Below are positions 46,229 to 61,686 of a stretch of 64,000 nucleotides of DNA, piece by piece. The notes under the pieces are model-generated. The model searched no databases, was not told the DNA's origin, and saw only the letters and a program-made list of their open reading frames with translations. The stretch is from a virus: positions 1 to 64,000 of IMG/VR virus record IMGVR_UViG_3300042934_000547; one strand, written 5' to 3'. A program made the translations under genes and the position numbers. Position 1 is the first letter of the stretch. Each line of letters starts with the position of its first letter.

Positions 46229-46250
46229 AGAGAGCTAATTAAAGCTCTCT
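46229..46250 (-). terminator. intrinsic terminator
   Basis: AGAGAGCT-aattaa-AGCTCTCT, followed on the minus strand by TTATTTTTATTTTC. The upstream stop sits in the loop. Confidence 0.7.
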
Positions 46251-46637
46251 CGAATTTAACCACGTTGCAATACTATGTAGTGATTTAAATGTCTTTCCAC
46301 CATTCTTCTTGACCATTTCCCCAACTTTTTTAAGTGATTTTAATTGACCTTCATCAAAGGTCTTATCACCATCACTCTCAAGCACGCAGAATAAAGCCTT
46401 TTCTGGACGTTTATTACTATCATCAACTATTTCGGCAATAGAATAAACCCCAGTCATTTTAGGTGTAATTACGTATAATACATAATCACATACTTCTCTT
46501 TGATGAAGTTCTTCTTTATAAGCTTTATCATCCCAATTTTCTACAACTGGATTGAAATAATTAATCTTTAATAGTGGTATTAATTCATCTCTCCAAGTGG
46601 ACTCATTACATGTTCCACCCAAAAACACTTTACTCAT
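46239..46637 (-). CDS. nucleoside 2-deoxyribosyltransferase-like protein (Nuc_deoxyri_tr2-type, tentative)
   Basis: MSKVFLGGTCNESTWRDELIPLL...CDYVLYVITPKMTGVYSIAEIVD fits the family pattern. Confidence 0.5.
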   Translation of the reverse strand: MSKVFLGGTCNESTWRDELIPLLKINYFNPVVENWDDKAYKEELHQREVCDYVLYVITPKMTGVYSIAEIVDDSNKRPEKALFCVLESDGDKTFDEGQLKSLKKVGEMVKKNGGKTFKSLHSIATWLNSREL

Positions 46638-46986: not shown

Positions 46987-47664
46987 TTATTTCCATAAAG
47001 GGTTATCCTGAATTCTCATTGCTATGATCATATTTCTAACCATATCTTTAGTCATATCGATAGTGCCATCAGTGTTTCCTTTGATTATCCCTCTATCAAC
47101 AGCTTTCTGTATTTCGTCCTGATAGAACTTATCAAATTCGTCAATTTTCTTATATCTTTTATTTTCCTGCTCAAGTGTTGCTACTTTTTCTGCAAGTTCC
47201 TTAACTTGTTTAAGTAATTCATCCATAATAACCTCCATGTTATATATTGTTCCGACTTTTAAAGATGCGATATCATGATACACTAGTGGATTTATCCATA
47301 CATTAGATGTATTTCTAATACCATAATGAAGATGAGAGCCAAAACTGTAACCAGTATTACCCATAATTCCTATAGGCTGTCCAACTTTAACAATAGTGCC
47401 AACCTTTACCAATCTTGATGATAGGTGGCAGAAATAATGCTTGTGTTTATCAGGGGATTCTATTGCAACATAATTACCCCATTGCCAAGTGATGTTACCT
47501 CTATCTGTAATCATTTGGCTGGAGACTACTTTACCAGATACTGGAGATAACACGGTTATATCTCCAACCCCTACAAAATCTACTCCATGATGATAACTAC
47601 TGTCACCATTTTCTAAAATACGTGGACCAAATTTACTAGTTATTTTAAATTTCTTAAATAACAT
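46987..47664 (-). CDS. M23 (LytM/lysostaphin-type) metallopeptidase with C-terminal coiled coil
   Basis: YHHGVDF (HxxxD) and GNTGYSFGSHLHYGI (HxH). C-terminal LKQVKELAEKVATLEQENKRYKK is followed by an AVDRGIIKGNTDGT SLH-like motif. AAGGAGGTG RBS. Confidence 0.85.
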   Translation of the reverse strand: MLFKKFKITSKFGPRILENGDSSYHHGVDFVGVGDITVLSPVSGKVVSSQMITDRGNITWQWGNYVAIESPDKHKHYFCHLSSRLVKVGTIVKVGQPIGIMGNTGYSFGSHLHYGIRNTSNVWINPLVYHDIASLKVGTIYNMEVIMDELLKQVKELAEKVATLEQENKRYKKIDEFDKFYQDEIQKAVDRGIIKGNTDGTIDMTKDMVRNMIIAMRIQDNPLWK

Positions 47665-47701
47665 TCCTGATACACCTCCTTAATTTATATTTATCAATAA
47701 A

Positions 47702-48535
47702 TTAATATTGATTTTCATATTGATGATATAATTCAGCCAACTTAATATCAACTTTTTGCCTTTCGGTCAATTTGTCGCTATTAAATCGTTCCTCAGATAT
47801 CAGTTGCCCATTTCCATCTTTGTTTTGAATAGTGAAATAAGCTTTAACATTAGTATTACACATATTCTCAACAATAATTTGGTGCTTATTAAAATAACCA
47901 GAAATAATATACTCTGTCATCAGATTTATATATTGGTCTCTTATAATATTATAATCAGCACTCACAAATCCAAATTCAATTCGTTTAAACCCCAGATTAA
48001 TTAGATTAGTTATACCTTCTTTTAAATATCCAATATTGAGTCTATTAATTGTAAAGTGGGCGATAGGATTACGCCCACTCTTAACGAAATTATTGATATT
48101 ATCAACAATATAATCATAAGACCCTTTCCCTGTTCTCATGATACGATTACTATTATGAGAAACTTTATTACCATCAATCGATATACATAGCAATATGTTA
48201 TACTTCTCAATGATGTCAATAACCCTATCTGAGTAAATAGTACCGTTAGTTGATGTGATGAATCTAAATTTATGATTTGGATAATTTGTCACAATATATT
48301 CACAAATATTTTCCAATCGATTTATAAACAGAAATGGCTCACCACCCAAAAATTCGACTGTAATTGTTCCAGCTGATGTCTTTTGCATACTGGTTTCAAA
48401 CGTCTGTATCATTTCTTCAAGTGTGATATCTAATAGATTATTCTCATCTTCTACGTTATTGTACACATAACAATATTTACATCGCATATTACACAACTTA
48501 GTTATATACAACGTTATATGACGAAGTTTATCCAT
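47702..48535 (-). CDS. radical SAM enzyme, core domain only (no SPASM Cys cluster)
   Basis: LYITKLCNMRCKYCYV (CxxxCxxC), FLGGEPF, and STNGT..D...I.ISIDG. The start shares one base with the upstream stop (TTAATG). Confidence 0.8.
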   Translation of the reverse strand: MDKLRHITLYITKLCNMRCKYCYVYNNVEDENNLLDITLEEMIQTFETSMQKTSAGTITVEFLGGEPFLFINRLENICEYIVTNYPNHKFRFITSTNGTIYSDRVIDIIEKYNILLCISIDGNKVSHNSNRIMRTGKGSYDYIVDNINNFVKSGRNPIAHFTINRLNIGYLKEGITNLINLGFKRIEFGFVSADYNIIRDQYINLMTEYIISGYFNKHQIIVENMCNTNVKAYFTIQNKDGNGQLISEERFNSDKLTERQKVDIKLAELYHQYENQY

Positions 48536-49659
48536 TAAAACTTTCCCTTCTGTATATTAAATTTCTTTGCTATGTTTTCATAACCAAGTTCATTTATATA
48601 TCTTTCAGATGCTTTATAAAAAATTTTCAGAGCTTTACATACACCATCGATTGGTTCGCATATATCCCTTTTACCTTGTTCCATTATGGCTGCAAAACAT
48701 TGTCCATAACAAACCTTATAAAGTTCACAATTTCGGCATTTTGGAGATATATCATGGGTGAAATTTTTATAAATATTAGCTACATTATGATTCTCATCAA
48801 TAGTAGTAAAAATGCTTCCCATCTTAGTACGCTCTAACCGACTATTAAAGAATCTTTGACATGGATATATATCACCGTTTGGTGCTATAGCAAGTATAGT
48901 TGACCCAGCGGTACAAAAATGCATTCTTTTCTCTCTTCTAGTATTGTAAGGAAGTAATAATCCATTATCATTAAATGCTTCATTAGAATTAAATTTTTCT
49001 ATTAAAAATGAAACATATTCATCATAAAATTTCTCTAGTCTTGCTAGATCATCATCAGACCATTCACAATCTCTTACAATACTTAAATTAGTTCGTCGAA
49101 ATCCATCATTTATAGAATCACGAATTCCATCCATGAGATAATCAATATTATCGGGTGCAATCATAGATTTAAAAATACGAGATCTAAGTGGAACATTATT
49201 TACCTTACAGTATGTTTTTATTGCTTTTAGACAGTCATCATAACTTCCTTTACCATTACTATAAACCCTACAACGGTCATGAGTAGTACGACCTCCATCT
49301 AATGACATACTGATTCGTATATCTTTATCTCTTAAATATATTAATTTCTCTTCATCTAACAAAGTTAAATTTGAGGTGGTCGCAATGGATATATTTACAT
49401 TTGGATGTAAACTTTGTACCATATTAATTTTATCAACAATTCTACAGAATTTATCCCATTCTAAAGTTGCTTCACCACCAAATAGATTAATATAAAAATA
49501 TTCTAAATTATTTTTAACGATGATATCATTAAAAAATGTTGGAAGTTGTTCAATAACATCATCAGTTATTGTTACGCCATTTTCCTTATCTACATAACAG
49601 TATTTACATCTTAAGTTACATTTTTCAGTAACTATAATAAGTATACTTTCAATCTTCAT
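48535..49659 (-). CDS. radical SAM / SPASM-domain enzyme
   Basis: VTEKCNLRCKYCYV, LFGGEATL, and the SPASM-type CTAGSTILAIAPNGDIYPCQRF ... CRNCELYKVCYGQC. AAGGAGAA RBS. Confidence 0.85.
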   Translation of the reverse strand: MKIESILIIVTEKCNLRCKYCYVDKENGVTITDDVIEQLPTFFNDIIVKNNLEYFYINLFGGEATLEWDKFCRIVDKINMVQSLHPNVNISIATTSNLTLLDEEKLIYLRDKDIRISMSLDGGRTTHDRCRVYSNGKGSYDDCLKAIKTYCKVNNVPLRSRIFKSMIAPDNIDYLMDGIRDSINDGFRRTNLSIVRDCEWSDDDLARLEKFYDEYVSFLIEKFNSNEAFNDNGLLLPYNTRREKRMHFCTAGSTILAIAPNGDIYPCQRFFNSRLERTKMGSIFTTIDENHNVANIYKNFTHDISPKCRNCELYKVCYGQCFAAIMEQGKRDICEPIDGVCKALKIFYKASERYINELGYENIAKKFNIQKGKF

Positions 49660-49690
49660 TACATTCTCCTTATTTTGTTAATCAATAATG

Positions 49691-49711
49691 AACATGGTAG
49701 CCTACCATGTT
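49691..49711 (-). terminator. hairpin between Cys-rich gene and downstream rSAM genes (attenuator/stabiliser?)
   Basis: AACATGGTAG-c-CTACCATGTT lies 29 nt after the stop of 49740..50141. There is no strong T-tract. Confidence 0.4.
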
Positions 49712-49739
49712 TAAGGTGTTAACTACACCCAACCCAATC

Positions 49740-50141
49740 TCAGGTGCATGTGCAGCAATCGCAATCACATGCACATCGATCACAAGTACATGCACATCGA
49801 TCACAGTCACAGTCACAGTCATTACAATTACATGAACAATAGTTATTATATATCGCAGTAGCAGCAGTTTGTGCTGCCGAAAAAATAGCTGGATAAATCA
49901 GTTTACCTGCTTCAAAGTTTATTAATGTACTTAAATCAGCTTTCGGATTGACATATGCATTAGCATTTGCTGCTGTTAAATTATTCTTAATTGATAAAAA
50001 TAATGCTGACATAACTTTCTGATTAGCTACAGCTGCCGTAGTATCAGCAGCTTGACCAACTCGTGTTCTGGCATTATTAACAGCAGTAACAACAGCAGTT
50101 CCATCAGCCGCCAATATCGCTGTACCTTTAGTTAACGCCAT
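49740..50141 (-). CDS. Ala/Thr-rich protein with extreme Cys/Asp C-terminal tail (candidate rSAM substrate)
   Basis: 133 aa. Residues 1-101 lack Cys. Residues 102-133 (CSCNCNDCDCDCDRCACTCDRCACDCDCCTCT) hold 15 Cys and 7 Asp. The start overlaps the upstream gene by 14 nt. Confidence 0.75.
   Translation of the reverse strand: MALTKGTAILAADGTAVVTAVNNARTRVGQAADTTAAVANQKVMSALFLSIKNNLTAANANAYVNPKADLSTLINFEAGKLIYPAIFSAAQTAATAIYNNYCSCNCNDCDCDCDRCACTCDRCACDCDCCTCT
49767..49820 (-). repeat. in-frame direct repeats inside the Cys-tail coding region
   Basis: The 18-nt ACATGCACATCGATCACA occurs twice (49767-49784 and 49788-49805, period 21 nt, encoding CDRCAC). It is followed by (ACAGTC)x3 at 49803-49820, encoding DCDCDC. 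Confidence 0.9.
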
Positions 50142-50451
50142 TTACACCACTCTCTTTCATAATAAAATCGATACTTTCATACACCATATCACTAATCGTA
50201 AACTTATAAATTCCATGTGAAATATTAGTGATATTCTTTATGATATTATCTCCAATTATAATTTTAACTGCCTCTACTGGTTTTTCCCTATAATATTGAT
50301 TTAGCACTTCTCCATTGATTCCTGCTAATTCATTAATAAGTCTAACTTGAACCACATCACTACTAAGGTTCATGAAAAATCCGATACCGTATGCCTTTTC
50401 GATTATGACATCTTCATCTTGATATTCGATTTTGATTTTTATATTGTCCAT
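50128..50451 (-). CDS. small Cys-free protein, paralog of upstream ORF (107 aa)
   Basis: KIKIEYQDEDVII.. and IIKNITNISHGIYKF parallel KIKILIDDVEVIV.. and AIKNITTIGFSDKF of 50453..50890. AAGGAGAC RBS. Confidence 0.65.
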   Translation of the reverse strand: MDNIKIKIEYQDEDVIIEKAYGIGFFMNLSSDVVQVRLINELAGINGEVLNQYYREKPVEAVKIIIGDNIIKNITNISHGIYKFTISDMVYESIDFIMKESGVNGVN

Positions 50452-50452
50452 A

Positions 50453-50890
50453 TTATTGGTCTCCTTTCAATGTGGAATTTACTAGTTTAGTATTAGAGAG
50501 AAACATTCTTTCATCAGAGTGATCCCTAAAATAATATATTGCATAACTTATACTCTTGATATCATGTATTTCATCATATACCAACCCAGCATCATCTAAT
50601 AATTTTACGGATATATTTTTATTATTTAATACTGCATTTTCAAGCATATCGAACTTATCACTAAATCCTATAGTGGTGATATTTTTAATTGCTAGGGAAT
50701 TTATTATCATTTCAGTTAAAGTCTTAGCAGTTTCTAGTGTTTCTTTTTTAAAATAAACACCTAATACTGCCGGAAATGATGGAAGTGTTGATTCTGATAA
50801 ACCTACTTCAGATATAACATCGAATACTATTACTTCAACATCATCAATCAGAATTTTGATCTTTGTCATGACAGTTACACTCTCTTTCAT
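50453..50890 (-). CDS. small Cys-free protein (145 aa; alternative start 50869)
   Basis: Overlaps the 3' end of the rSAM gene by 26-47 nt. Paralogous to 50128..50451. Confidence 0.6.
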   Translation of the reverse strand: MKESVTVMTKIKILIDDVEVIVFDVISEVGLSESTLPSFPAVLGVYFKKETLETAKTLTEMIINSLAIKNITTIGFSDKFDMLENAVLNNKNISVKLLDDAGLVYDEIHDIKSISYAIYYFRDHSDERMFLSNTKLVNSTLKGDQ

Positions 50891-52142
50891 TCATCATAAG
50901 TGAGAATTTTTCAGTCAATAACACTTCTTGTAACTCTAACAAATGTTGTAATGTCACGATTTGTCCTTCTGTAAAATTCTCACTCAGTAATCTTCCCATT
51001 TCCTGTAAAATAACAATAGAGTTTTTGTCAGGTTTATTTATTTTTCCGAATAATTCCTCATAAACATAAATTGACAATTCTTTCTCAATTTCTAAGAGTT
51101 TACAATTTTTTGGAAAACCATATGCAATGTTTCCATTATGATTATAATTAATAGCCATACAACTTCTACAATTATAATTATCACAGTCCGAACAAGCTTT
51201 ATATCCAATCATATATTTTCTATACAATTCTTCATATTGCACACATTTTGATTTATCAACCCCATCAAATACTGAACCGATTTTAGTATCTGGATCGGTT
51301 AAAAATCCATGACATGGATACACATCACCATTAGGGGTAATAGTGCAATATGATACTCCGGCACCACAGGATTTATCAGCACGTTTATCTTTATATTGTA
51401 ATGATGTAAATACATCATGTTCTTGAATACCATTAGTATTGCAATCGATGATAATATCATTTGCGATTTTTGTATATTCTCGTCTAAAGATATCGTAGTC
51501 ACTATCATCCCAGTCTTCTTCATGTAATGCCATGAACCATATTTTTTTAAATCCTAATTCATCTTTGAAAAATTTGTATGTCTTATGTGCGTATGGTAAT
51601 GTGGCTTTTGTTACAACACTATGCACTGATATTTTATTTTGCGGTACATTAATTCTATTAAATAAATCCCTTATCTTCTTTATAGAATTAATTATATTAT
51701 TAGAAGAACCTTTTCCATTTAAATCAATTCTTTGTAGGTCATTAATTTCAGGGATAGAATCAAATGAGATTTGAATAGAAAAACTTTCAGGGCTATTTGT
51801 CCACCAATTAATCAAGAATTGTTCATATTCATCACTATATAGAACTCCATTAGTGATTAATCCAGATGTGTATACCAGATTATTTTCCTTTGTTTTCATC
51901 ATAGCATAATTAAATATGTGGTTCATCACCTCAACATTTATAGTCGGTTCTCCACCAAAATATGTAATATCAATACCTTTCTTTTCATTCTCTAAAGCTT
52001 CATTAATCAAAAAATCAACAGCTTTTTCGGCTATTTCTTTTGTCATAAAGATTCCTTTACCTGTTCCCTTTTCAAAACAATAAGTACAATTTAAATTACA
52101 AGCATCTGTTAACATCACTGATGCACTTGTTAATCCTGACAT
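50844..52142 (-). CDS. radical SAM / SPASM-domain enzyme (anSME-like architecture)
   Basis: LTDACNLNCTYCFEKG, YFGGEPT, and the SPASM-type CGAGVSYCTITPNGDVYPCHGF ... CSDCDNYNCRSC. AAGGAGGAAAACA RBS. Confidence 0.85.
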   Translation of the reverse strand: MSGLTSASVMLTDACNLNCTYCFEKGTGKGIFMTKEIAEKAVDFLINEALENEKKGIDITYFGGEPTINVEVMNHIFNYAMMKTKENNLVYTSGLITNGVLYSDEYEQFLINWWTNSPESFSIQISFDSIPEINDLQRIDLNGKGSSNNIINSIKKIRDLFNRINVPQNKISVHSVVTKATLPYAHKTYKFFKDELGFKKIWFMALHEEDWDDSDYDIFRREYTKIANDIIIDCNTNGIQEHDVFTSLQYKDKRADKSCGAGVSYCTITPNGDVYPCHGFLTDPDTKIGSVFDGVDKSKCVQYEELYRKYMIGYKACSDCDNYNCRSCMAINYNHNGNIAYGFPKNCKLLEIEKELSIYVYEELFGKINKPDKNSIVILQEMGRLLSENFTEGQIVTLQHLLELQEVLLTEKFSLMMNERECNCHDKDQNSD

Positions 52143-52218
52143 TGTTTTCCTCCTTTATTTCAAGGTCTACACCTTGTATTCTTATAAAAATGTTTCAATT
52201 TGTTTTAAATAAAAGAAT

Positions 52219-52239
52219 GGGTTGGTATTATACCAACCC
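52219..52239 (-). terminator. intrinsic terminator ending the fibre operon
   Basis: GGGTTGGTA-tta-TACCAACCC sits immediately after the TAG of 52240..53253, followed on the minus strand by ATTCTTTTATTT. Confidence 0.75.
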
Positions 52240-53253
52240 CTATCTATTCATTATGAGAATCTCTATTAATTCTATTTCATCAGTAGTCTTATTTTGTAGA
52301 GATTTACCTACAATAGTACCGGGAATATTTTCTATCGATTTCATTCCTACACCTTCTATATCGGATGAAGTAATTAAATCTCCAATTTCTATCTTTCCAG
52401 TAATATATACTTTCAATCTACCAGCCAAACCAATAGGGATATAATTTTTCAAATTATCTTCATTTGATACGTCTTTATCCCCACCTAATAAGAATCCATA
52501 ATTGTCAGAAACAACACCTACTATCTTTTTAGAATTAGCTGATGATGAATAACAATATGTATTAGTGTCTGGTTCTAACTCGATAATATGATTAGGTTCG
52601 TAAGTGACATCTGGTTTATGTTTCTTAAATAACTCAGCGTAGTCATTCCATACAGCATTAGTTATTAAATCCCCTTCAATCCAGACTTTTTTCATTACAG
52701 CACCCATTGACCAACCACCAACAGCTAATGCATTACTCTTGTTTAACCCAAAATTTAATGCATATGCACCCGCTCGGTGAAATGATATAAAGGCGGCTGA
52801 TGCACTGTCTGAACGTATTTCTAGACCACCAGCTGCATATGCTGGTGAATAACTAACATCGGCACCACCAACAATTGCAGCTGTGAATAATCTACTACTA
52901 AGCGTTCCACCAGCAATGCCGTCTCTCCATAATGATTTATTTTTAAATCTGATATCAGTATTACCATTAGTTATTGATAATCCTACTGCTGGGAAATCAC
53001 TACTACCTTGTGCAACACCCCAAACGTTATTTGGGTCTGTGTAAATACCCCAAGCCTGAGTTTCTATTCCCTGAATATCAGCTGTTGGGGTTAATCCCAT
53101 GAGAATATCAGTCCAACCACCACTACTACTTTTAGATATTCTAATTCCTTCCTGATAATTATTTTCAGAAGGTTTAAGTATTAATCGTTTAAGATATGAA
53201 TTACCATTAACATTTAAGCTTCCATTTACAATAGTTGAATTTAACCTACCCAA
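52240..53253 (-). CDS. tail fibre/spike paralog P3 with conserved C-terminal chaperone-like domain
   Basis: N-terminal MGRLNSTIVNGSLNVNG and a C-terminal block of about 130 aa (ITNAVWNDYAELFKKH...VGVVSDNYGFLLGG...IPIGLAGR...GDLITSSDIEGVGMKS) are shared with P1/P2. TTG start behind GGGAGGTG. Confidence 0.7.
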   Translation of the reverse strand: MGRLNSTIVNGSLNVNGNSYLKRLILKPSENNYQEGIRISKSSSGGWTDILMGLTPTADIQGIETQAWGIYTDPNNVWGVAQGSSDFPAVGLSITNGNTDIRFKNKSLWRDGIAGGTLSSRLFTAAIVGGADVSYSPAYAAGGLEIRSDSASAAFISFHRAGAYALNFGLNKSNALAVGGWSMGAVMKKVWIEGDLITNAVWNDYAELFKKHKPDVTYEPNHIIELEPDTNTYCYSSSANSKKIVGVVSDNYGFLLGGDKDVSNEDNLKNYIPIGLAGRLKVYITGKIEIGDLITSSDIEGVGMKSIENIPGTIVGKSLQNKTTDEIELIEILIMNR

Positions 53254-53296
53254 TATTAAACACCTCCCGTCTCTATATTATAAATATTTATATTAT

Positions 53297-54229
53297 TTAG
53301 CAGTTCATAATCAATACATTGATCTTTTTTATATCTTCATTTAAATCAGTATCTAAGGCTTTAGCAATTATGGTTCCCTTAGGATTATCCAATTCCGATT
53401 TCATTCCTACACCTTCTATATGTGAAGATGTTATTAAATCTCCAGCCTCTATAGGTCCTATTACCCAAAGCTCAACTCTCCCTGCTAAACCAACGGGAAT
53501 ATATGTTTTTAAATTTTTCTCAGTAGATTGTTCTTCTCCACCAAGTAAGAATCCGTAACTATTTGATACAATACCTACTGCTAACTTAGAATTTGGAGTT
53601 GAAGAATATTTATACGTTTTGCTTTTTGGTTCTACTTCAATAATATGATGTGCTTCATAATTAACAGATGGATCGTGTTTCTTAAATAACTCGGCATAGT
53701 CATTCCACACAGCATTGGTTATCATATCACCAGCTAACCACGCACGTTTATTATATGATGGACCAGCAAGAATATCACCAGTTACATACAGTGGTTTATT
53801 TGTATGAAATCCAACGGTTGCATCAGTAACAAAATGACAATAACTTGTGTTTTCAGCACCAAAAGATGATGTACGACCACTTTTTAGTGATACTAGGTTG
53901 CCTTTTGATTCTACATTACTATTTCCTGTTATTTTACCAGCGACGATGTTTGCAGTACCAGTAGCACCACCAAACGTAAATTCGATTGGAATAGGTTTAC
54001 TATCCTTAGCCCTATAGCCAAAACGAATAGTACTCGCATTATTACTTCCACCAAAATTTATTTCATTATTATTTTCAATATATAATTTTACATTACCTAC
54101 AACACCCTCACCTGCCATTAATCCGTTTTTGCTATATAAAGCCCCATTCACATTTACATCACTACTTAAATGAGTCTTTCCGCTAACGTTTAAACTCCCA
54201 TTTATAACAGTTGAATTTAATCTACCCAA
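53297..54229 (-). CDS. tail fibre/spike paralog P2
   Basis: Same N- and C-terminal blocks with a divergent middle. TTG start behind AAGAGGTG, in an identical GGTGTTTAATATTGGGTAG context. Confidence 0.7.
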   Translation of the reverse strand: MGRLNSTVINGSLNVSGKTHLSSDVNVNGALYSKNGLMAGEGVVGNVKLYIENNNEINFGGSNNASTIRFGYRAKDSKPIPIEFTFGGATGTANIVAGKITGNSNVESKGNLVSLKSGRTSSFGAENTSYCHFVTDATVGFHTNKPLYVTGDILAGPSYNKRAWLAGDMITNAVWNDYAELFKKHDPSVNYEAHHIIEVEPKSKTYKYSSTPNSKLAVGIVSNSYGFLLGGEEQSTEKNLKTYIPVGLAGRVELWVIGPIEAGDLITSSHIEGVGMKSELDNPKGTIIAKALDTDLNEDIKKINVLIMNC

Positions 54230-54276
54230 TATTAAACACCTCTTTTCGAGCTGAAATGATAGATTTTATCTATATT

Positions 54277-55344
54277 TTATCCAGCCATAATTAAAACATT
54301 TACTTTCTTTATATCTTCATTTGGATTGGTTTCTAAGGCTTTTCCTATTATCGTTCCTTTAATCTTTAACTCTGATTTCATTCCCACACCTTCTATATCT
54401 GATGAAGTAATTAAATCTCCAGCACGTATTGGTCCGGTTACCCATACTTTAACTCTTCCAGCTAAGCCTATAGGGATAAAATTTTCTAAGTTCTCTTCAT
54501 TGGTTTTGTTTTCTTCTCCACCAAGTAAGAATCCATAGTTATCAGAAACCACTCCTACTAATAATTCCGAATTAGCTTTGGAAGAATATTTATATGTATT
54601 AGTATGAGGATCTAGCTCGATGATATAACCAGCCTCATAATCCTTATTATCATGTTTTTCAAATAACTCAGCATAGTCGTTCCATACTGCATTAGTTATC
54701 AAATCACCAGCCAACCATACACGCTTACTTGATTGAGCATATATATCGCCCTTAACAAATAATCTACCAGTATTTGAACCCAATGTCATCATTGTGACTG
54801 GATTATCAGCACCAGCATTACTACGTGATTCCCATGACCATCCATACCCTGTTGAATTTTCTACAATCTGTCTTATAGCCCATGATGATACATCACCTAA
54901 AGCTACACCAGCACCACCACCCGGGGCAGCACCAGTGATTGGTAACATAAATATTCGCCAAGTTTTTTCATAACCGGCACTATAGAATCTAATTCCGCTG
55001 GCTGCTCCTCCTGCATTAAAACTTAAACCACCAACGAGTGTAGCATTGTTTGCAATTAACCCAGCACTTCCACCTGAACCACCGAATACAAAGGAGCTAG
55101 GGATAGGTTTACTATCCTTAGCTCTATATCCAAAATAAATAGTACTTAAGGCATTACTCCCGCCAAAATTAACTTCAGAATTAAATTCAGGATATATTTT
55201 CATCAATTCATTGTATCCCGGCTGGTCAGTAGTAAATCCACTATTTCCATGCACTGTGCCTGATACATCTAAATTATTTCTTATATATGCCTTACCATTA
55301 ACAGTTAGAGTTCCATTTATAATGGTTGAGTTTAATCTACCCAT
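54277..55344 (-). CDS. tail fibre/spike paralog P1
   Basis: Same N- and C-terminal blocks with a Gly-rich divergent middle. ATG behind GGAAGTGA. Confidence 0.7.
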   Translation of the reverse strand: MGRLNSTIINGTLTVNGKAYIRNNLDVSGTVHGNSGFTTDQPGYNELMKIYPEFNSEVNFGGSNALSTIYFGYRAKDSKPIPSSFVFGGSGGSAGLIANNATLVGGLSFNAGGAASGIRFYSAGYEKTWRIFMLPITGAAPGGGAGVALGDVSSWAIRQIVENSTGYGWSWESRSNAGADNPVTMMTLGSNTGRLFVKGDIYAQSSKRVWLAGDLITNAVWNDYAELFEKHDNKDYEAGYIIELDPHTNTYKYSSKANSELLVGVVSDNYGFLLGGEENKTNEENLENFIPIGLAGRVKVWVTGPIRAGDLITSSDIEGVGMKSELKIKGTIIGKALETNPNEDIKKVNVLIMAG

Positions 55345-55356
55345 ATTATCACTTCC

Positions 55357-58300
55357 TTAATTTTCAATAATCTGCTTACAATATACGTATCCGTCATTGG
55401 TAAATATGGATTCTTTAGGATTAAGATAAAAATCCTTTCCGTCAGGGGGTTCTACATATTCCCCTTCTATATCTGAATCAAAAATAGTAATCCAGTCAAC
55501 CCCATTCGTTGATACTTCTAACTTATTTTTGTAATAACTGCGTGTATCATGACCATAATGGTTTAGATTTATTCTGGTTATTGTAGCTATATAACCTATA
55601 TCAACCTGAATATAACAGTGCTCATTAGTTGTAGTATCAATATAACCGAGAGAACCATCTCTAACATTCATACACGGTAATGCTAACATACCGCCATATA
55701 ATATATTTGGATCAAATGGAACAGCGACTGTCCTCATGGTAGCAGCATTAGTTGTACAAACTTTCCCCGTTAATATTTCTTCTTCAGTTTCGTTATAAGC
55801 CCTTAATCCAAACCAGTGATTATTTGGTCCAGTTGTGTTACCGGCAATCCAGTTTCTTATATATCTAATAGGCATTCCACCAGCAATTACTTCAGATGCA
55901 TCTAAAATACCTTTATCAGAAACATTTCCTCCAGAATTAAATGGCATTATCATATTTTGTGGAAAGGTTATATTTTTAAATGTCATACCACCAAATCTCC
56001 ATGGTTTATATCCCGGTCCATAACCAGCAAATATTCCAACCCTTACATATTTGGTTCCTACCCAGAAATTACCTATTTTTGGATTGAATTTAAATGAGTA
56101 TTTAGTCCATTGTTGAGGTATTGAACCACTGAATGGGTAAATATATGTGCCACCATCATAATCGTTAGATACTTTCGTTCCAGCCTTAATTAATCCACGA
56201 CTCCATGGATTTAATAGTGTGATAACATTTCCTTCTACCTTAAGATAATAATCATCTATTCTAGCTACTTCATAATTCCTATATTCAGGTCTATCAAATA
56301 TACCTATTTTCTTATCGTATCGTCTGACACCCGGTTCAAGATTGTTCCAATTGACTCCAGATGTTAACTGTACTGTAGTATCACCATCTTTTAAATCAGC
56401 AGCCAAAGTAGTTCTAGTATTTCCAACATTAGACACCATAGAAACACTTATAGGTTTCATCTCTCGATCATAACAAGCAACACACATATATCCCAGAGAT
56501 AGTTCAGTAGTTGTACTACGTAACCACATATTGAATTCATAAACGCCATTATCATTATTAATCGGAATCAATGTATCATCAAAAACTTCACCATATCCCG
56601 GGAAATCTATACAACCATTACCAAATACACCATCTGTAGCAATAAAAGTCCCAGTGATTGGAGCAAAAATCCCGTGTCCAGAATTTTGAAACCCCCTTAT
56701 CGACTTATCTTCCAATCTACCATTCCAAACTAAGTTGTCGTCATCATTTTCAACTATTTCTTCACAAAATAAACTTCCTTTATCATCAATGAATGCACGT
56801 GTCTCATAAACTTCTTTAACATCTTGTGCACTAAGTGCATTAGCATATATTCTCACATCGTCAATAACTCCATTGAAATGTCTACTTGGTGATGTACCTT
56901 GCTGTTCCCCACCTATATATATTTCACCTGTATTAGTAAAATATCCAGTATTTACAACAGTGTGTTTTAATTCTCCATTTATATAGAACTTCAAATTATC
57001 CGATTCCCAAACGAGTGTTAACATACTCCATTGATTTAACGGAATTACCTGTCCAGTATAATCGTGATATCCGGGTGTAACTTTACCATATGCATGTGCT
57101 GATAAATATCCATCTTTATTAATTGTAAGATATATTCCTTTGTATCTCAAAATCATATCCCTATCACTAATTATTTGTCTCGCTATTGGGTATACCCAAG
57201 TTGTTAATGTAGCCGTTTGATACACTAATATATTTGGTTGTACTTTTACTAATCCTTGAGTATCCATAAATCTCATAGCATTACTACCAACTTTAGTATT
57301 AGATGAAATGATAGATGGAGAAAATATTGATAGAGTTTCTGATATATCCTCATGAAAATCACTACTATCAGTTATAATAGCATGTCTTATTCCATTGACA
57401 AATGGTGTAACATGGTCTTTAGCTTCCAATTGTGGAGCACAAAACCAAGTTCTTTGAGATTCACCATTTGGATTTCCAAAAAAGAATTCAAAACTTAACG
57501 ATTTAGATTGACTGTCCATTGGATTTAAAAATGGTTGCCAAATTATTCTATGCCATTCATCATCGCCCGGAACATTTATGTATTCACTATTATATCTACC
57601 AACTTCAGAATTATCAGCTGTATAGAATTTAATTCTAAAGTTAGAGTCTCTTGTTTTCACATATAACGAACAAGTGTATGTTTTTCCGGGTTCTTGTGGA
57701 GCATAATCTCCATAGCTATACCAATAACATTCTGCTGCGGAACTTCTATAGAAACTAACTACTGGAGAACTTATACCTTTAGGTGGTTCTATATCATTCC
57801 ATATTATTCCGGTGCAATAAGTTTTACTCCAACCAACATCTAAGTCAGTATTAATAATCACATTTTGTGTAGATTCTTCATATGGATTGTCAAACTTATA
57901 ATGAGCGATTTTAGTTCTATAAAGATCTCTAACTTCCTTTTGTGATAGCGTGTGATTGTATACTCTTATATCGTTCATTCTTATGGGAAGAACGGCATTT
58001 GGACCATTTCCAGCATATACGGTAGGTAAGTTAATGAAAAAATTTGATATATATCGAGTATTAGTGGTTGATGGTTTTATACTAGTTAATTTTTGTGAAT
58101 TTATTAAATTTCCATCGAGAAAGACGGATATTGTTTGATTAAGTTTATCATAGGTTACATATACATGAACCCATTTATTATAAGGAATTATTTCACTTAT
58201 AGTGATTCCATATGACGCATCTGAGCGTACTGTTGCCAGTAATGATATATCAATTTTATTTGATACCCATGTTAATGCCAATCCACCATAAGCATTATAA

Positions 58301-58587
58301 CCTAATAATGTTCCAGTAGGGGTTGTAGATATGGTATCTGTGACTATAGTTGATAAATGAGCTTTACATTCGGTTTCATCGAAATAAAGCCATCCACCGA
58401 ATGAACAGTCAGTTTTAAATAAACCCCATTCCTCATATTTAATACCAGTATCTATAGAATATGGAATTTTCATACAAGTCCCTAGCATACCATTATTAAT
58501 TTTAGTACCTCCAGTTACTGGTGTATTTTTGTTTCTTATTATATCAATTGTGTCCTGTGTAAACGGATAATGTGCTATCAATCCCAT
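55357..58587 (-). CDS. giant LamG + discoidin-like receptor-binding protein L1 (1076 aa)
   Basis: MGLIAHYPFTQD is a LamG_3-type start, with two DD.R.Y...LS..E...LY LamG end motifs. C-terminal RYIRNWIAGN..., YIQVDIGYIATITRINLNHYG and LEVSTNGVDW are F5/8-type-C-like. It ends with YCKQIIEN. Confidence 0.75.
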   Translation of the reverse strand: MGLIAHYPFTQDTIDIIRNKNTPVTGGTKINNGMLGTCMKIPYSIDTGIKYEEWGLFKTDCSFGGWLYFDETECKAHLSTIVTDTISTTPTGTLLGYNAYGGLALTWVSNKIDISLLATVRSDASYGITISEIIPYNKWVHVYVTYDKLNQTISVFLDGNLINSQKLTSIKPSTTNTRYISNFFINLPTVYAGNGPNAVLPIRMNDIRVYNHTLSQKEVRDLYRTKIAHYKFDNPYEESTQNVIINTDLDVGWSKTYCTGIIWNDIEPPKGISSPVVSFYRSSAAECYWYSYGDYAPQEPGKTYTCSLYVKTRDSNFRIKFYTADNSEVGRYNSEYINVPGDDEWHRIIWQPFLNPMDSQSKSLSFEFFFGNPNGESQRTWFCAPQLEAKDHVTPFVNGIRHAIITDSSDFHEDISETLSIFSPSIISSNTKVGSNAMRFMDTQGLVKVQPNILVYQTATLTTWVYPIARQIISDRDMILRYKGIYLTINKDGYLSAHAYGKVTPGYHDYTGQVIPLNQWSMLTLVWESDNLKFYINGELKHTVVNTGYFTNTGEIYIGGEQQGTSPSRHFNGVIDDVRIYANALSAQDVKEVYETRAFIDDKGSLFCEEIVENDDDNLVWNGRLEDKSIRGFQNSGHGIFAPITGTFIATDGVFGNGCIDFPGYGEVFDDTLIPINNDNGVYEFNMWLRSTTTELSLGYMCVACYDREMKPISVSMVSNVGNTRTTLAADLKDGDTTVQLTSGVNWNNLEPGVRRYDKKIGIFDRPEYRNYEVARIDDYYLKVEGNVITLLNPWSRGLIKAGTKVSNDYDGGTYIYPFSGSIPQQWTKYSFKFNPKIGNFWVGTKYVRVGIFAGYGPGYKPWRFGGMTFKNITFPQNMIMPFNSGGNVSDKGILDASEVIAGGMPIRYIRNWIAGNTTGPNNHWFGLRAYNETEEEILTGKVCTTNAATMRTVAVPFDPNILYGGMLALPCMNVRDGSLGYIDTTTNEHCYIQVDIGYIATITRINLNHYGHDTRSYYKNKLEVSTNGVDWITIFDSDIEGEYVEPPDGKDFYLNPKESIFTNDGYVYCKQIIEN

Positions 58588-58601
58588 ATCTTCTCACTTC
58601 C

Positions 58602-61600
58602 TTAATTTTCAACAATTTGTTTACAATATAGATATCCATCATTGGTTAATATAGCTTCCTTAGGATTGAGATAAAACTCTCTTCCACTACTAGTTTCTGC
58701 ATATTCTCCATCCGCATTTGAATCAAATATTGTAGTCCAATTAACTCCATCAGTCGACACTTCTAATTTATTTCCGTGATAAGTTCGACCGTCGGAATAA
58801 TAATGCCATAATTTTATTTTGTTTATTGATGTAATGTATCCTATATCTACAGTAAGATATGGAACTGCCTCAACATAATTATTTGTATTTAAATTTCCAT
58901 TACATAATGCTGAACGAGGTCCTCCATATATAGGATAAAATAATCCAGCAATACCAGCATGTGCCACGGGAGTTTCTATTGTTAATTTGCCCAAAATGAT
59001 ATTCTCATCAACTTCATTATATGCTTCCATTTGAACCCAATGATTTCCACCATTAGCTGTGCTACCATTAATATGATTTCGTATATATCTAACGGGCATA
59101 CCACATGTAACAACTTCAGATGTATTTAAAATACCTTTTTCAGAAAGATCGCCACCATAGTTAAATGGAATTATTTTATTTTGAGGTGACGTTAAATTCT
59201 TCACAACTATTCCGCCAAATCTCCATGGAGTATACACTGAATTTACAGGTCTTGAGCTAATACCGAATAAAACATATTTAGTACCTGCACGAAAACTATT
59301 ATAACCGGGACCATATTTAGCCGAATAATTAGTCCATACTTGTGGATAATTTGGGATATGCGGGTATGAATATGTGCTACCACTAAAACAGTTAGCAACA
59401 TAGGTTCCAGCTTTAATTAATCCTCCATTCCATGGTTGAGTTAAAATAATTGTATTTCCTTCGACTCTGAAAAAATAAGCATTTAAACGTGACACTTCGT
59501 AGTTTCTGAATTCTGAATGATCAAATATACCAATCTGCTTAGTATGGTGTTGAAGTGTTGGATCAGTGTTAACCCAGCTTGCACTAGAAGTAAGCTGTAC
59601 GATGGTATCTCCGTCTTTTAAATCAGCAGCAAGTGTTGTTCTTGTAGCTGCATAATGCATAGTTCGGTCATGTGTAAGAAACCTTTTATCTTTATCAAAA
59701 CAAATAATAGAAACATATCCAGACGCCAATTCAGCACTCATACTACGTAGCCAAATATCAAATTGATAAACATCGTTTGTATTAATAGGAATAAGATAGT
59801 TTATATAATTCGAAATAGTACCATGACCTTGAAAATCCATGCATCCGTTACCAAATACACTATCAGTTGAAATAAATTGTCCACTTGTATCGGTACTAGT
59901 GGATTCAAATCGACCAAACCCCTTATTAGATTTATCTTCGAATCGACCATTCCAAACTAAATTATCGTCGTATTCTTCAATTATCTCTTCACAAAATAAA
60001 GCTCCTTTATCATCGATAAATGCACGAGTTTCATAAAGTTCTTTAATATCTTCTACGGTAAGTTGATTAGCATATATTCTAAAATCATCAATAAACCCAT
60101 TCATATCCCAACCTGAATGATAGTTGTTGATAAACAAATAAGCCCATGCGGATAGATTTACTCCCAATAAAGTATACAAATGCCATTTACCGTCATTAAC
60201 TGGTGCATAGCCTACATTTCCATCTATAAAAATCATAATAGCACCAGCAGCACTATGATAGAAATTACCAACTCCTTCAGCAGTAGCCATTATATAATTA
60301 GAACCATTTCCATAATCTAGACCAGTTCCATTCATGAATAACCAATTAGTTAATACATCTGAATTTTTAAACCAGAAACTTATGGTACCATTAATAAGAG
60401 CAGTTTTAACTATATCTGGTATTCTAATTGATTGATGTGTTTTAGCAAATCTAAGAGCACCACTACCAATTTTAGAATCGTTAGTAATGGTAATTGGATT
60501 AAACAAAAGCGTTCCATCATTATGAAAATCACTACTATCAGATATAACAGCATTTCGTATACCATTTACATATGGAGTATAATGATCTTTCTTCTCAAGT
60601 TGCACATCTCGAACCAAAATGAATGTATTGGTATTAGGTATAGACATCAATACATAAAATCTATAATATGAATTAACTTCAGCTACGAATGTTTTACTAA
60701 ATTGCCGTTCTTTAACGTTATGAGTTTTTGAATCAAATAAATTTACATCAGCACCATCTTTATATAGACCGAGATGTAATAGAATATTATCATTACTTTG
60801 TATTTTCAGTGAAACTGTATATGTAACACCAGCTACTAATCCCGTATAATCTTGATACATTCCCGGAGTAGAAGAAGCTTGGTTAGATTTACATTTAATA
60901 TAATCTATCCCATCTATTGTTTCCTTTGATAAAGTCACATTCTGATTAGGTTTCCATGATGCTAAATTTTCGCCATTTACAAATAGATTCTCAGTAGATT
61001 CTTCATATAGATTATCAAATTTATAATGACATATCTTAGTCTTGTAAATATCTTTAGCTTCTTTCTGTGATAGAGTATGGTCATAAACTCTCACATCATT
61101 ATAAAGTCCAGTAGTAGTATAGCTATTATAATTTACACTCCATTGATTTATCTGTAATGGCTGTTCAGTAAACTTAACTTTTATGGATGGTATAAACGAA
61201 TTAGTTAACACACCATTTACATAAAAACATATTTTATTTTCTTGTAAGTTATAAGTTAATATGATATGATACCATTCATTCAGATTTATTATTGGTCCAA
61301 GAAATTCATCCCAACTCCTATTTCCATTTATATATCCAACGGATGCTGATAATCTATTACCTGCTAGATTAATTCCAATATTTGATGTATTTACATAATT
61401 ATGCATAGTTAATATAGCTGTGGGACTAGTTGAATATGCGGTTAGTTTAACCCACAAACAAAAACTTTGATCCCCATTTAAATAGAAATTTCTATTAGAT
61501 GAAGCATATGCACCAATAACTGATGCTGTATAACACTTACCTAGTTTTCCGTTACTATCAATATTAAATCCATTATATCCAATTAAATGGTTATCATTTC

Positions 61601-61652
61601 CAGTATAATCTAGTAAATTTTCCATTAGTGGGTAATGGGCTAATAAACTCAT
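58602..61652 (-). CDS. giant LamG + discoidin-like receptor-binding protein L2 (paralog of L1)
   Basis: Collinear with L1, with identical blocks such as YETRAFIDDKG.LFCEEI, DDNLVWNGR and TRTTLAADLKDGDT. It ends with YCKQIVEN. Start at ATG 61652 (MSLLAHYPL) behind GGAGGTGAGG. Confidence 0.75.
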   Translation of the reverse strand: MSLLAHYPLMENLLDYTGNDNHLIGYNGFNIDSNGKLGKCYTASVIGAYASSNRNFYLNGDQSFCLWVKLTAYSTSPTAILTMHNYVNTSNIGINLAGNRLSASVGYINGNRSWDEFLGPIINLNEWYHIILTYNLQENKICFYVNGVLTNSFIPSIKVKFTEQPLQINQWSVNYNSYTTTGLYNDVRVYDHTLSQKEAKDIYKTKICHYKFDNLYEESTENLFVNGENLASWKPNQNVTLSKETIDGIDYIKCKSNQASSTPGMYQDYTGLVAGVTYTVSLKIQSNDNILLHLGLYKDGADVNLFDSKTHNVKERQFSKTFVAEVNSYYRFYVLMSIPNTNTFILVRDVQLEKKDHYTPYVNGIRNAVISDSSDFHNDGTLLFNPITITNDSKIGSGALRFAKTHQSIRIPDIVKTALINGTISFWFKNSDVLTNWLFMNGTGLDYGNGSNYIMATAEGVGNFYHSAAGAIMIFIDGNVGYAPVNDGKWHLYTLLGVNLSAWAYLFINNYHSGWDMNGFIDDFRIYANQLTVEDIKELYETRAFIDDKGALFCEEIIEEYDDNLVWNGRFEDKSNKGFGRFESTSTDTSGQFISTDSVFGNGCMDFQGHGTISNYINYLIPINTNDVYQFDIWLRSMSAELASGYVSIICFDKDKRFLTHDRTMHYAATRTTLAADLKDGDTIVQLTSSASWVNTDPTLQHHTKQIGIFDHSEFRNYEVSRLNAYFFRVEGNTIILTQPWNGGLIKAGTYVANCFSGSTYSYPHIPNYPQVWTNYSAKYGPGYNSFRAGTKYVLFGISSRPVNSVYTPWRFGGIVVKNLTSPQNKIIPFNYGGDLSEKGILNTSEVVTCGMPVRYIRNHINGSTANGGNHWVQMEAYNEVDENIILGKLTIETPVAHAGIAGLFYPIYGGPRSALCNGNLNTNNYVEAVPYLTVDIGYITSINKIKLWHYYSDGRTYHGNKLEVSTDGVNWTTIFDSNADGEYAETSSGREFYLNPKEAILTNDGYLYCKQIVEN

Positions 61653-61686
61653 ATTCCTCACCTCCATTGTAATTTAAGCAAAATAA

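Follow-up and report, generated by a model that had tools for sequence, protein, structure and literature searches.

Why would a phage end one of its proteins with a cysteine at nearly every second residue, and what becomes of so many thiols? The question is posed by a small gene in the IMG/VR virus record IMGVR_UViG_3300042934_000547, of which we analyzed positions 1 to 64,000 (64 kb, termed the window throughout). The gene lies on the minus strand at 49740..50141 (stop codon 49740-49742), starts with ATG and encodes 133 amino acids (aa); its product, identical to P0001 of a 231,975-bp JGI contig, reads MALTKGTAILAADGTAVVTAVNNARTRVGQAADTTAAVANQKVMSALFLSIKNNLTAANANAYVNPKADLSTLINFEAGKLIYPAIFSAAQTAATAIYNNY, then the tail CSCNCNDCDCDCDRCACTCDRCACDCDCCTCT. 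An earlier inspection of the DNA by itself—the sequence-only reading—had described the 32-residue tail at 49743-49838 as a near-pure C-x-C lattice, a description borne out by its 15 Cys residues. Such repeats, we find, nearly always adjoin several radical S-adenosylmethionine (SAM) enzymes. We consider it somewhat probable that the Cys array is a substrate of these enzymes, carrying thioethers between Cys and Asp or Asn, and that the protein is a fiber-type virion component that keeps its N-terminal domain.

The tail (residues 102-133) follows an N-terminal domain (N-domain; residues 1-101, 49839..50141, minus strand) that ends in the junction motif IYNNY. Alignment with relatives resolves the tail into 4.5 units of the form C-x-C-x-C-[D/N]-x, namely four of seven residues each—CSCNCND (49818-49838), CDCDCDR (49797-49817), CACTCDR (49776-49796), and CACDCDC (49755-49775)—and a partial one, CTCT (49743-49754), all on the minus strand. 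Besides its 15 Cys, the tail holds 7 Asp, 2 Asn, 2 Arg, 2 Ala, 3 Thr, and 1 Ser; it is 47% Cys and contains no aromatic residues, against a Cys background of 1.25% of codons in 25 long open reading frames (ORFs) of the window. Across all six frames of the 64 kb, this is the sole ORF with at least 7 Cys per 30 residues, its own maximum being 14. A local GC excess had also been noted and is real (0.47 at 49700-49799 vs 0.31 for the whole window); it arises from amino-acid composition, rich in Cys, Asp, Ala, and Arg, because the Ala-rich 5' part of the gene, which encodes the N terminus, is GC-rich too (0.42-0.45). Pfam, NCBIfam, and PHROG offer no family match for the protein. Even at E ≤1, Pfam returns only a spurious tail-terminator match for P0001, with no metallothionein or ferredoxin model, and NCBIfam returns nothing, its CXXX-repeat target models included.

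Could such a run be a low-complexity accident, produced by slippage and devoid of function? The DNA repeats beneath it, with their shared rare codons, would fit that explanation, and comparison with a sister phage speaks to it directly. The sole close homolog among 5.8 billion proteins is P0002, 59% identical and encoded on a 246-kb phage contig whose locus, L001, carries the surrounding genes in the same order. The cross-genome alignment and unit counting proposed in the sequence-only reading here give an equal number of units and tails in register: the tail alignment is gapless, 13 of 15 Cys coincide, and 23 of 29 positions (79%) are identical, compared with 51% identity in the N-domain. At the codon level, 14 tail codons are identical, 9 differ synonymously, and 7 nonsynonymously, whereas the N-domain has 28 identical, 24 synonymous, and 49 nonsynonymous codons. 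The tail thus shows the reverse of the pattern that the earlier inspection had associated with an accident, in which the tail is lost and the N-terminal part kept. By the codon comparison, nothing else in the protein is conserved as strongly as the amino-acid sequence of the tail, which is under stronger purifying selection than the N-domain. In-register conservation despite nine synonymous changes, and at least 581 relatives with a C-x-C-x-C heptad unit, rule out the accident, which we regard as vanishingly improbable; the tail is instead a genuine, selected module.

Those relatives emerged from profile searches. A profile of the N-domain only, searched against 1.84 billion representatives, reached P0003 (E 7e-10) and P0004 (E 3e-4) beyond P0002, both with much longer Cys arrays. 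That of P0003 runs for about 55 residues and leads into a Hint-like domain; that of P0004 runs for about 105. A fourth match, P0005, looks spurious and has no Cys array. A four-protein profile matched at least 581 proteins at E ≤1e-3. Unit consensus and unit counts were taken from 120 family proteins holding 870 units. The consensus is C-T-C-[N/D]-C-[N/D]-[Y/R/H], in which position 4 is Asn in 522 units and Asp in 248 (770 of 870 together), position 6 is Asn in 755 and Asp in 70 (825 of 870), and position 7 is Tyr in 743, Arg in 35, and His in 33. Proteins hold 2 to 24 units, with a median of 6 and a mode of 4. The window protein fits this family in its N-domain, its C-x-C-x-C-[N/D]-x array (units of seven or eight residues in the family), and its nearby radical-SAM genes; its array is an Asp/Arg-rich variant seen also in P0021, P0031, and P0057.

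Three architectures recur. Type a, as in the window, consists of the N-domain, the array, and a short end; type b places a Hint-like domain after the array (PF13403 or PF14890 is precomputed on some members); and type c has a longer N-terminal part, the array, and then SDxRLKxNI, with which Peptidase_S74, an intramolecular chaperone domain of phage fibers, begins. The SDxRLK motif directly follows the array in 55 family proteins examined, and PF13884 is precomputed on 8 of the 120 matches listed. Types a and b share an N-domain homologous to the region that precedes the repeats in 60 S74-type, fiber-like proteins (hhalign 98.8%, E 7.6e-17, 109 columns). Since a self-cleaving domain follows the array, the mature product of types b and c would end with the array. 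The window protein has neither S74 nor Hint domain and ends natively after its array, four residues past the last full unit, like these predicted mature products.

Several observations on the family accompany this picture. Some proteins stop exactly at '...CNCNY' (P0018, P0025, P0049, P0054, P0061, P0063, P0084, and P0089); because S74 begins there in relatives, their native C terminus coincides with the predicted S74 cleavage site. A Hint- or intein-like domain sits right after the array in P0003, P0006, P0008, P0011, P0023, P0028, P0031, and P0119 (for example, at L009:10001-11392), and these Hint-like domains begin with a Cys nucleophile in C[VFL]xP[DE]xxIxT. The P0003 domain was rejected as a bona fide intein (Pfam Intein_splicing, E 0.07, far below cut-off), and we retain the term Hint-like. 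The end of P0002, 'C-GLVIGDN', resembles the Hint-domain ends '..VVGDGF' and '..IIIGDGYV', a likeness that hints at an origin of the short forms by Hint loss. Many S74-type members carry a second, N-terminal Cys/His motif run ('MAC.GH..', with repeated C-x-x-H; for instance P0009, P0010, P0012, P0024, P0033, and P0039), which may be another metal-binding or modification site. Cys-repeat genes also occur as tandem paralogs, two at L004:10001-11133, four at L020:4685-7282, and three at L023:7389-9455.

To judge from databases and literature, the repeat family is apparently undescribed. Neither the repeat nor the N-domain is covered by any entry in Pfam, NCBIfam, PHROG, or the PDB; the other family members examined likewise have no Pfam, NCBIfam, or PHROG match to either part, and neither P0034 nor the profile drew a meaningful match in PDB sequence searches. 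Among 50,697 phage records, neither megablast with 47000-53000 nor tblastn with the Cys protein produced a match. We found no description in the literature of C-x-C-x-C phage repeats or of radical-SAM-modified phage fibers; one cyanophage paper mentions a radical-SAM maturase, taken there as an antibiotic gene with no evidence given.

What then links the array to an enzyme? At all seven family loci retrieved (L001 and L004-L009), spanning the three architectures, at least three Radical_SAM genes lie within 10 kb. In the window, the genes run on one strand in the order 432-aa radical-SAM, 145-aa, 107-aa, Cys-tail, 374-aa radical-SAM, and 277-aa radical-SAM, and this cassette order is kept in L001 and in the much more distant L004, L005, and L006; the Hint-type locus L009 has a shortened cassette with one small gene. 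A test free of any choice by radical-SAM content used loci picked only by a DNA pattern encoding CTCNCNYCTCNCNY. IMG/VR has the pattern in 29 contigs, whereas 185,579 species genomes of bacteria and archaea yield only 2 contigs, both of metagenome-assembled genomes. Within the few kb of sequence at hand, 27 of the 31 loci show between 1 and 9 radical-SAM-like ORFs; two of the other four are just about 1 kb long.

The three window enzymes, all encoded on the minus strand, resemble Cys-directed maturases. The 432-aa enzyme (50844..52142) carries CX3CX2C at residues 15-22 and the complete set of Cys motifs for the SPASM auxiliary clusters, as does the 374-aa enzyme (48535..49659; CX3CX2C at residues 14-21, Pfam Radical_SAM and SPASM). 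The 277-aa enzyme (47702..48535; Pfam Radical_SAM and Fer4_12) lacks SPASM and has CX3CX2C alone. With the motif so early (residues 14-22), the 432-aa and 374-aa enzymes therefore bear no N-terminal recognition-domain extension. For all three, the best NCBIfam match is PapB (NF047865), at 194.2 bits for the 432-aa enzyme, 188.5 for the 374-aa enzyme, and 130.8 for the remaining one, where the curated cut-off is 340. After PapB come Cys-directed maturases of the SCIFF/CteB, CXXX-repeat, QhpD, and CefB types: of the SCIFF models (TIGR03973/TIGR03974), that of the maturase gives 80, 115, and 153 bits across the three (cut-off 425), the CXXX-repeat maturase model 116-127 bits (cut-off 350), and the QhpD model 76-116 bits (cut-off 453), each below its threshold. 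The best PDB match of the 432-aa enzyme is 5wgg (E 2.8e-34), deposited as 'Radical SAM domain protein', which we take to be CteB.

Orthologs of each of these enzymes recur in both type a and type b loci: the 432-aa enzyme in L001, L004, L005, and L009 (34-65% identity, with a fragment in L006), the 374-aa enzyme in L001, L005, L009, and L004 (31-68%), and the 277-aa enzyme, at similar length, in L001, L004, and L006 (35-59%). A search for related loci found none with the Cys protein alone and only the sister contig with the 374-aa enzyme. Among the 50,697 phage records, matches to the 432-aa enzyme were limited to 10 unannotated contigs of gut 'Bacteriophage sp.' (25-30% identity).

Because the enzyme clade is Cys-directed and each unit contains two near-invariant Asn/Asp residues, Cys-to-Asp/Asn thioethers would be the most likely product. 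Characterized enzymes offer precedents for this chemistry. PapB forms thioethers from Cys to Asp or Glu and tolerates C-Xn-D spacings of n = 0-6 (PMC9413430), and can act independently of a leader on C-terminal segments (PMC12715619). NxxcB joins Cys to Asn, tolerates Asp, and holds the thiol on an auxiliary cluster (PMC9389541), while QhpD equips a protein subunit with three Cys-Asp/Glu thioethers (PMC7876137). In the tail, C-Xn-D pairs are numerous, most of them with n = 0-2 and a single one C-X3-D (CNCND), a spacing off the canonical Cys-X3-Asp/Glu yet inside the n = 0-6 range of PapB in vitro (PMC9413430).

On this basis the following course of events may be proposed. The protein would be a minimal member of its family, with a helical N-domain of about 100 residues and an array of C-x-C-x-C-[D/N]-x. 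In the anaerobic cytoplasm of the infected cell, the co-encoded radical-SAM enzymes—two SPASM-type and PapB/CteB-like, one with the core domain only—would act on the C-terminal array. A Cys thiol would be bound on an auxiliary Fe-S cluster, a nearby Asp or Asn would lose a hydrogen on a side-chain carbon to the 5'-deoxyadenosyl radical, and a thioether would form. Through many such cycles the array would become a compact covalent rod or knot, resistant to proteases and redox changes. The N-domain would stay on as a handle for recognition or assembly and not as a discarded leader, and the product would be a fiber-type component of the virion, not a diffusible peptide. The array would gain or lose whole units via slippage or unequal recombination.

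Known systems show both how close this proposal stands to precedent and where it departs. PapB and its substrate PapA (freyrasin), a ranthipeptide system, share with the window a SPASM maturase and a substrate of repeated Cys and Asp, which PapB links by Cys-S to Asp-C-beta thioethers. That substrate is a short peptide with canonical C-X3-D spacing, however, whereas here Cys occupies every second residue of a 133-aa protein with a predicted folded N-domain, and at least three enzymes per locus are borne by phages beside tail-fiber genes. QhpD and QhpC resemble the proposal in placing several Cys-Asp/Glu thioethers in a polypeptide kept in a protein assembly (PMC7876137), but QhpC is a non-viral enzyme subunit with a cleaved 28-residue leader, three cross-links, and no repeat array. 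SCIFF/CteB, the CXXX-repeat systems (TIGR04115/TIGR04117, PF27846), and CefA/CefB all pair Cys-periodic targets with adjoining SPASM maturases, as here; the SCIFF precursor is only about 45 aa with six Cys, and Cys recurs every fifth residue in CefA, whereas the window array has a Cys period of two within a seven-residue unit and matches no target model.

A number of points weigh against the proposal. All three enzymes score below every curated NCBIfam cut-off, which makes the reaction type an extrapolation from relatives. No RiPP recognition element (PqqD/RRE; RiPP, a peptide made on the ribosome and modified after translation) was found in the enzymes or the small proteins, and no cultured phage among the 50,697 records carries the module. 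Cys at every second residue is unlike any characterized substrate we know of. The tail has 15 Cys and 9 Asp/Asn, and therefore not every Cys can pair with Asp or Asn. Loci with 3 to 9 radical-SAM genes point to several kinds of reaction and not to thioether formation alone. AlphaFold2 (AF2), with a 22-sequence alignment, gives the tail no confident structure (predicted local distance difference test, pLDDT, <50). Finally, the window protein is small and lacks both S74 and Hint domains, and a hairpin lies 3' of its gene, as is common for RiPP precursor genes.

Might the cysteines simply hold metal? In this alternative the tail is a metallothionein-like or Fe-S module, or a metal ladder along a trimer axis, and the radical-SAM enzymes act elsewhere or are neighbors merely because they share a need for Fe-S clusters. 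The His-x-His iron sites at the tip of the T4 long tail fiber are a parallel from virion biology. A 47% Cys C-x-C lattice with carboxylate and amide neighbors and no aromatics is what such a module might look like, and C-x-C-x-C in an extended strand would put three thiols on one face. Cys/His runs at the N terminus of some S74-type relatives point the same way, and sugar-modifying enzymes in L007 and L008 indicate that not every neighbor need act on the tail. Metallothioneins share very high Cys content and C-x-C motifs with the tail, but here these are set in a strict heptad with conserved Asn/Asp, joined to an N-domain and linked to radical-SAM genes; the near-invariant Tyr and two Asn/Asp of the consensus unit are not metallothionein-like. 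No Pfam or NCBIfam metallothionein or ferredoxin model matches, and the family-wide co-occurrence with Cys-directed radical-SAM maturases would be left unexplained. Metal binding is also compatible with enzymatic cross-linking, whose catalysis has the substrate Cys serve as a ligand of the auxiliary cluster (PMC9389541). We consider a metal module by itself quite unlikely. Of the two possibilities raised in the sequence-only reading, a thioether substrate fits the context better than a metallothionein, given three flanking PapB/CteB-like radical-SAM genes and the link across the family.

Improbable as well, and in our judgment slightly more so, is a disulfide-bonded or purely structural Cys stack, for instance in a trimeric beta-structure oxidized after release, with the radical-SAM enzymes performing some other modification such as epimerization, C-methylation, or conversion of Cys to formylglycine. 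The array does stand directly before trimerizing S74 chaperone domains in relatives, an anaerobic sulfatase maturase of the SPASM clade (anSME) is among the enzyme matches, and one enzyme has no SPASM domain. The best matches are nevertheless thioether-forming maturases, not anSME, and two conserved Asn/Asp per unit fit the role of acceptor residues.

If the array is cross-linked, where does the product go? Placement in the virion would follow from the homology to S74-bearing proteins, the conserved place among tail-fiber genes, and the near-exclusively viral distribution of the family. In the window, the cassette sits at the end of a tail-fiber block, downstream of three tandem tail-fiber paralogs of 337, 310, and 355 aa (52240-55344). 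These have a common N terminus, MGRLNST[IV][IV]NG[ST]LNV, and a Peptidase_G2/pre-neck-appendage-like C-domain (41-68% identity), and fiber genes with this C-domain recur beside the cassette in L001, L004, L005, and L007. S74 phage fibers and spikes are themselves close comparators, since the domain before the repeats in S74-type family members is homologous to the window N-domain, but we found none described with Cys-heptad repeats or radical-SAM partners.

The N-domain itself is predicted by AF2, from the 22-sequence alignment, to form three helices (residues 11-27, 45-59, and 84-100; pLDDT 66-86 in blocks of 10 residues over 11-100); a two-sequence alignment reached only pLDDT 41. With Foldseek, the PDB yielded no significant match (best E 3.7) and BFVD one weak match, an uncharacterized myovirus protein (E 0.036, TM 0.60). 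With matches absent or weak, the N-domain would be neither a recognized RiPP leader nor a known fold.

These results bear on a further alternative, which would make the protein the precursor of a diffusible phage RiPP. The 101-residue N-terminal part would be a leader, cleaved from a cross-linked 32-residue core, and a ranthipeptide-like product would be freed at lysis, perhaps aimed at competitors or at host signaling or defense. A small protein beside several radical-SAM/SPASM maturases of the RiPP clade would suit such a product; a hairpin lies directly 3' of the gene, precursor-like paralogs stand in tandem in L004 (two), L020 (four), and L023 (three), and the family does process its proteins, as the self-cleaving Hint domains of relatives attest. 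In those relatives, however, the self-cleaving domain is C-terminal to the array, and N-domain and array stay joined. The supposed leader is a conserved domain, predicted to have three helices and common to S74-type fiber-like proteins, and the place among tail-fiber genes is conserved. The cassette genes include no leader protease, C39/ABC exporter, or immunity gene (Pfam, NCBIfam, and PHROG), the only nearby peptidase being M23/SLH and lysin-like, and no RiPP recognition element was found. We therefore regard a diffusible RiPP as unlikely, and retain the fiber-type component with an enzymatically cross-linked array as our preferred reading.

A bolder form of the preferred reading is possible, and we put it forward tentatively, as a conjecture that could well prove wrong: in many large phages of anaerobic habitats, virion fiber tips would be built of C-x-C-x-C-N/D-Y heptads stitched by dedicated radical-SAM enzymes of the phage into thioether rods, possibly also between chains. 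If true, this would amount to radical-SAM covalent modification of virus particles and a new, protein-scale RiPP-like branch, with arrays that vary rapidly in unit number.

How the array came to be, and whether it varies, can be approached through its DNA. The sequence-only reading had drawn attention to internal repeats, and these are as it described: two exact 18-nt copies, both ACATGCACATCGATCACA, at 49767-49784 and 49788-49805 (minus strand, within 49767..49805), encoding CDRCAC as residues 120-125 and 113-118. Their spacing is 21 nt, or one unit, and a 21-nt period in DNA therefore corresponds to one 7-residue protein unit. Three ACAGTC hexamers (plus strand) stand in tandem at 49803-49820, reading (GAC TGT) x3 on the coding strand for DCDCDC, with GAC the minor Asp codon. 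Tandem Repeats Finder picks up both periodicities, 21 at 49758-49811 and 6 at 49801-49821.

From these repeats a recent internal duplication had been proposed, of which only one part stands. The CDRCxC-x-CDRCAC layout and the unit number are common to the window and its sister, which makes the array older than the separation of the two phages; since the sister phage has the CDRCAC pair too, we rejected a recent duplication as the source of that pair. What may be recent is the sameness of the copies. Identical independent encodings of CDRCAC have a probability of about 0.05 under window codon usage, and two CGA codons for Arg one of about 0.012, CGA making up 11% of window Arg codons. In the L001 tail both Arg codons are AGA, the DCDCDC run uses GAT where the window has GAC three times, and the longest exact repeat is 12 nt vs 18 nt in the window. 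With modest statistical weight, this suggests recent homogenization inside the array, by slippage or conversion, with no net change in length.

The proposed capacity for slipped-strand length variation likewise finds its support in the family and not in the window gene. For the latter no variation was seen, on the one contig available, and two contigs of the sister protein encode identical sequence. Family clusters at ≥90% identity do contain length variants, with whole-unit insertions or deletions in otherwise 97-98% identical proteins. For example, alignment of the near-identical P0037, P0167, and P0171 gives 5, 4, and 3 heptads; P0119, P0199, and P0203, a type b lineage with the junction NIYNNYCSCNCN as in the window, have 4, 3, and 2 CSCNCNNC octads; and P0058 and P0144 differ by deletion of one heptad (7 residues). 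Unit-number polymorphism is thus a property of the family.

Precedents exist for Cys-periodic targets beside SPASM maturases, and for a protein subunit cross-linked by thioethers. New are the heptad with Cys at every second residue, the fusion of a fiber-family domain to arrays that have self-cleaving domains at the C terminus, phage cassettes with several enzymes, and the polymorphism in unit number. Should the proposal hold, radical-SAM thioether chemistry would be used by phages on fiber-family proteins and not only by bacteria on small secreted peptides, and virion biology would gain a new type of covalent reinforcement; the isopeptide chainmail of HK97 is an established one. A large unannotated substrate class, of at least 581 proteins, would come into view, as would compact multi-enzyme cassettes for making densely cross-linked peptides. 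To our knowledge, no study of radical-SAM/SPASM enzymes has dealt with a Cys period of two residues. A length-polymorphic repeat could, in addition, matter for host range or particle stability.

The remaining genes of the cassette and its surroundings round out the locus. The two small accessory proteins are encoded on the minus strand, the 145-aa protein at 50453..50890 (35% identical and equally placed in L001) and the 107-aa protein at 50128..50451 (position conserved, 56% identical in L001); the start of the Cys-tail gene overlaps the stop of the latter by 14 nt. Neither has a Pfam, NCBIfam, or PHROG match, and a hidden Markov model of the 107-aa protein finds weak relatives adjoining Cys-repeat genes in L005, L009, and L004 (E 1e-5 to 3e-3). 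The upstream limit of the cassette is probably set by a strong, bidirectional terminator-like hairpin (52219..52239) that separates the last tail-fiber gene from the first radical-SAM gene. On the other side of the Cys-tail gene, the 80-nt gap 3' of its end holds a nine-pair hairpin, AACATGGTAGGCTACCATGTT (49691..49711, minus strand), with a weak T-run; it looks terminator- or attenuator-like, a function we infer from its form. As a strong structured element it was rejected, the folding of the 91-nt gap being unexceptional (z -1.48). Beyond the tail-fiber paralogs lie two adjacent paralogous virion or tail proteins of about 1,000 aa (55357-61667), with phrog_26670 at the N terminus and phrog_21973 (tail protein) at the C terminus.

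Past the 277-aa enzyme gene, an M23 peptidase with an SLH-like segment (PF00395, E 6.8e-5) is encoded at 46987..47664. This SLH-like peptidase, the 31% GC content, and the oxygen-sensitive radical-SAM enzymes together hint that the host is anaerobic and Gram-positive and has an S-layer. The window contains no tRNA genes. Where the window has the peptidase gene, L001 has, right after the shared cassette (L001:12458-17269), a 603-aa radical-SAM gene followed by C-x3-C repeat proteins of 551 and 421 aa (TIGR04117 weak, E 0.021; PF27846 faint), a second and different set of Cys-repeat targets. Genes for sugar modification also lie beside the module in two other loci, with glycosyltransferases in L007 and L008, and DegT and a carbamoyltransferase in L008 as well. 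A Nuc_deoxyri_tr2 gene (nucleoside 2-deoxyribosyltransferase-like) occurs near the module both in the window (46239-46637) and in the unrelated locus L008 (L008:3448-4635).

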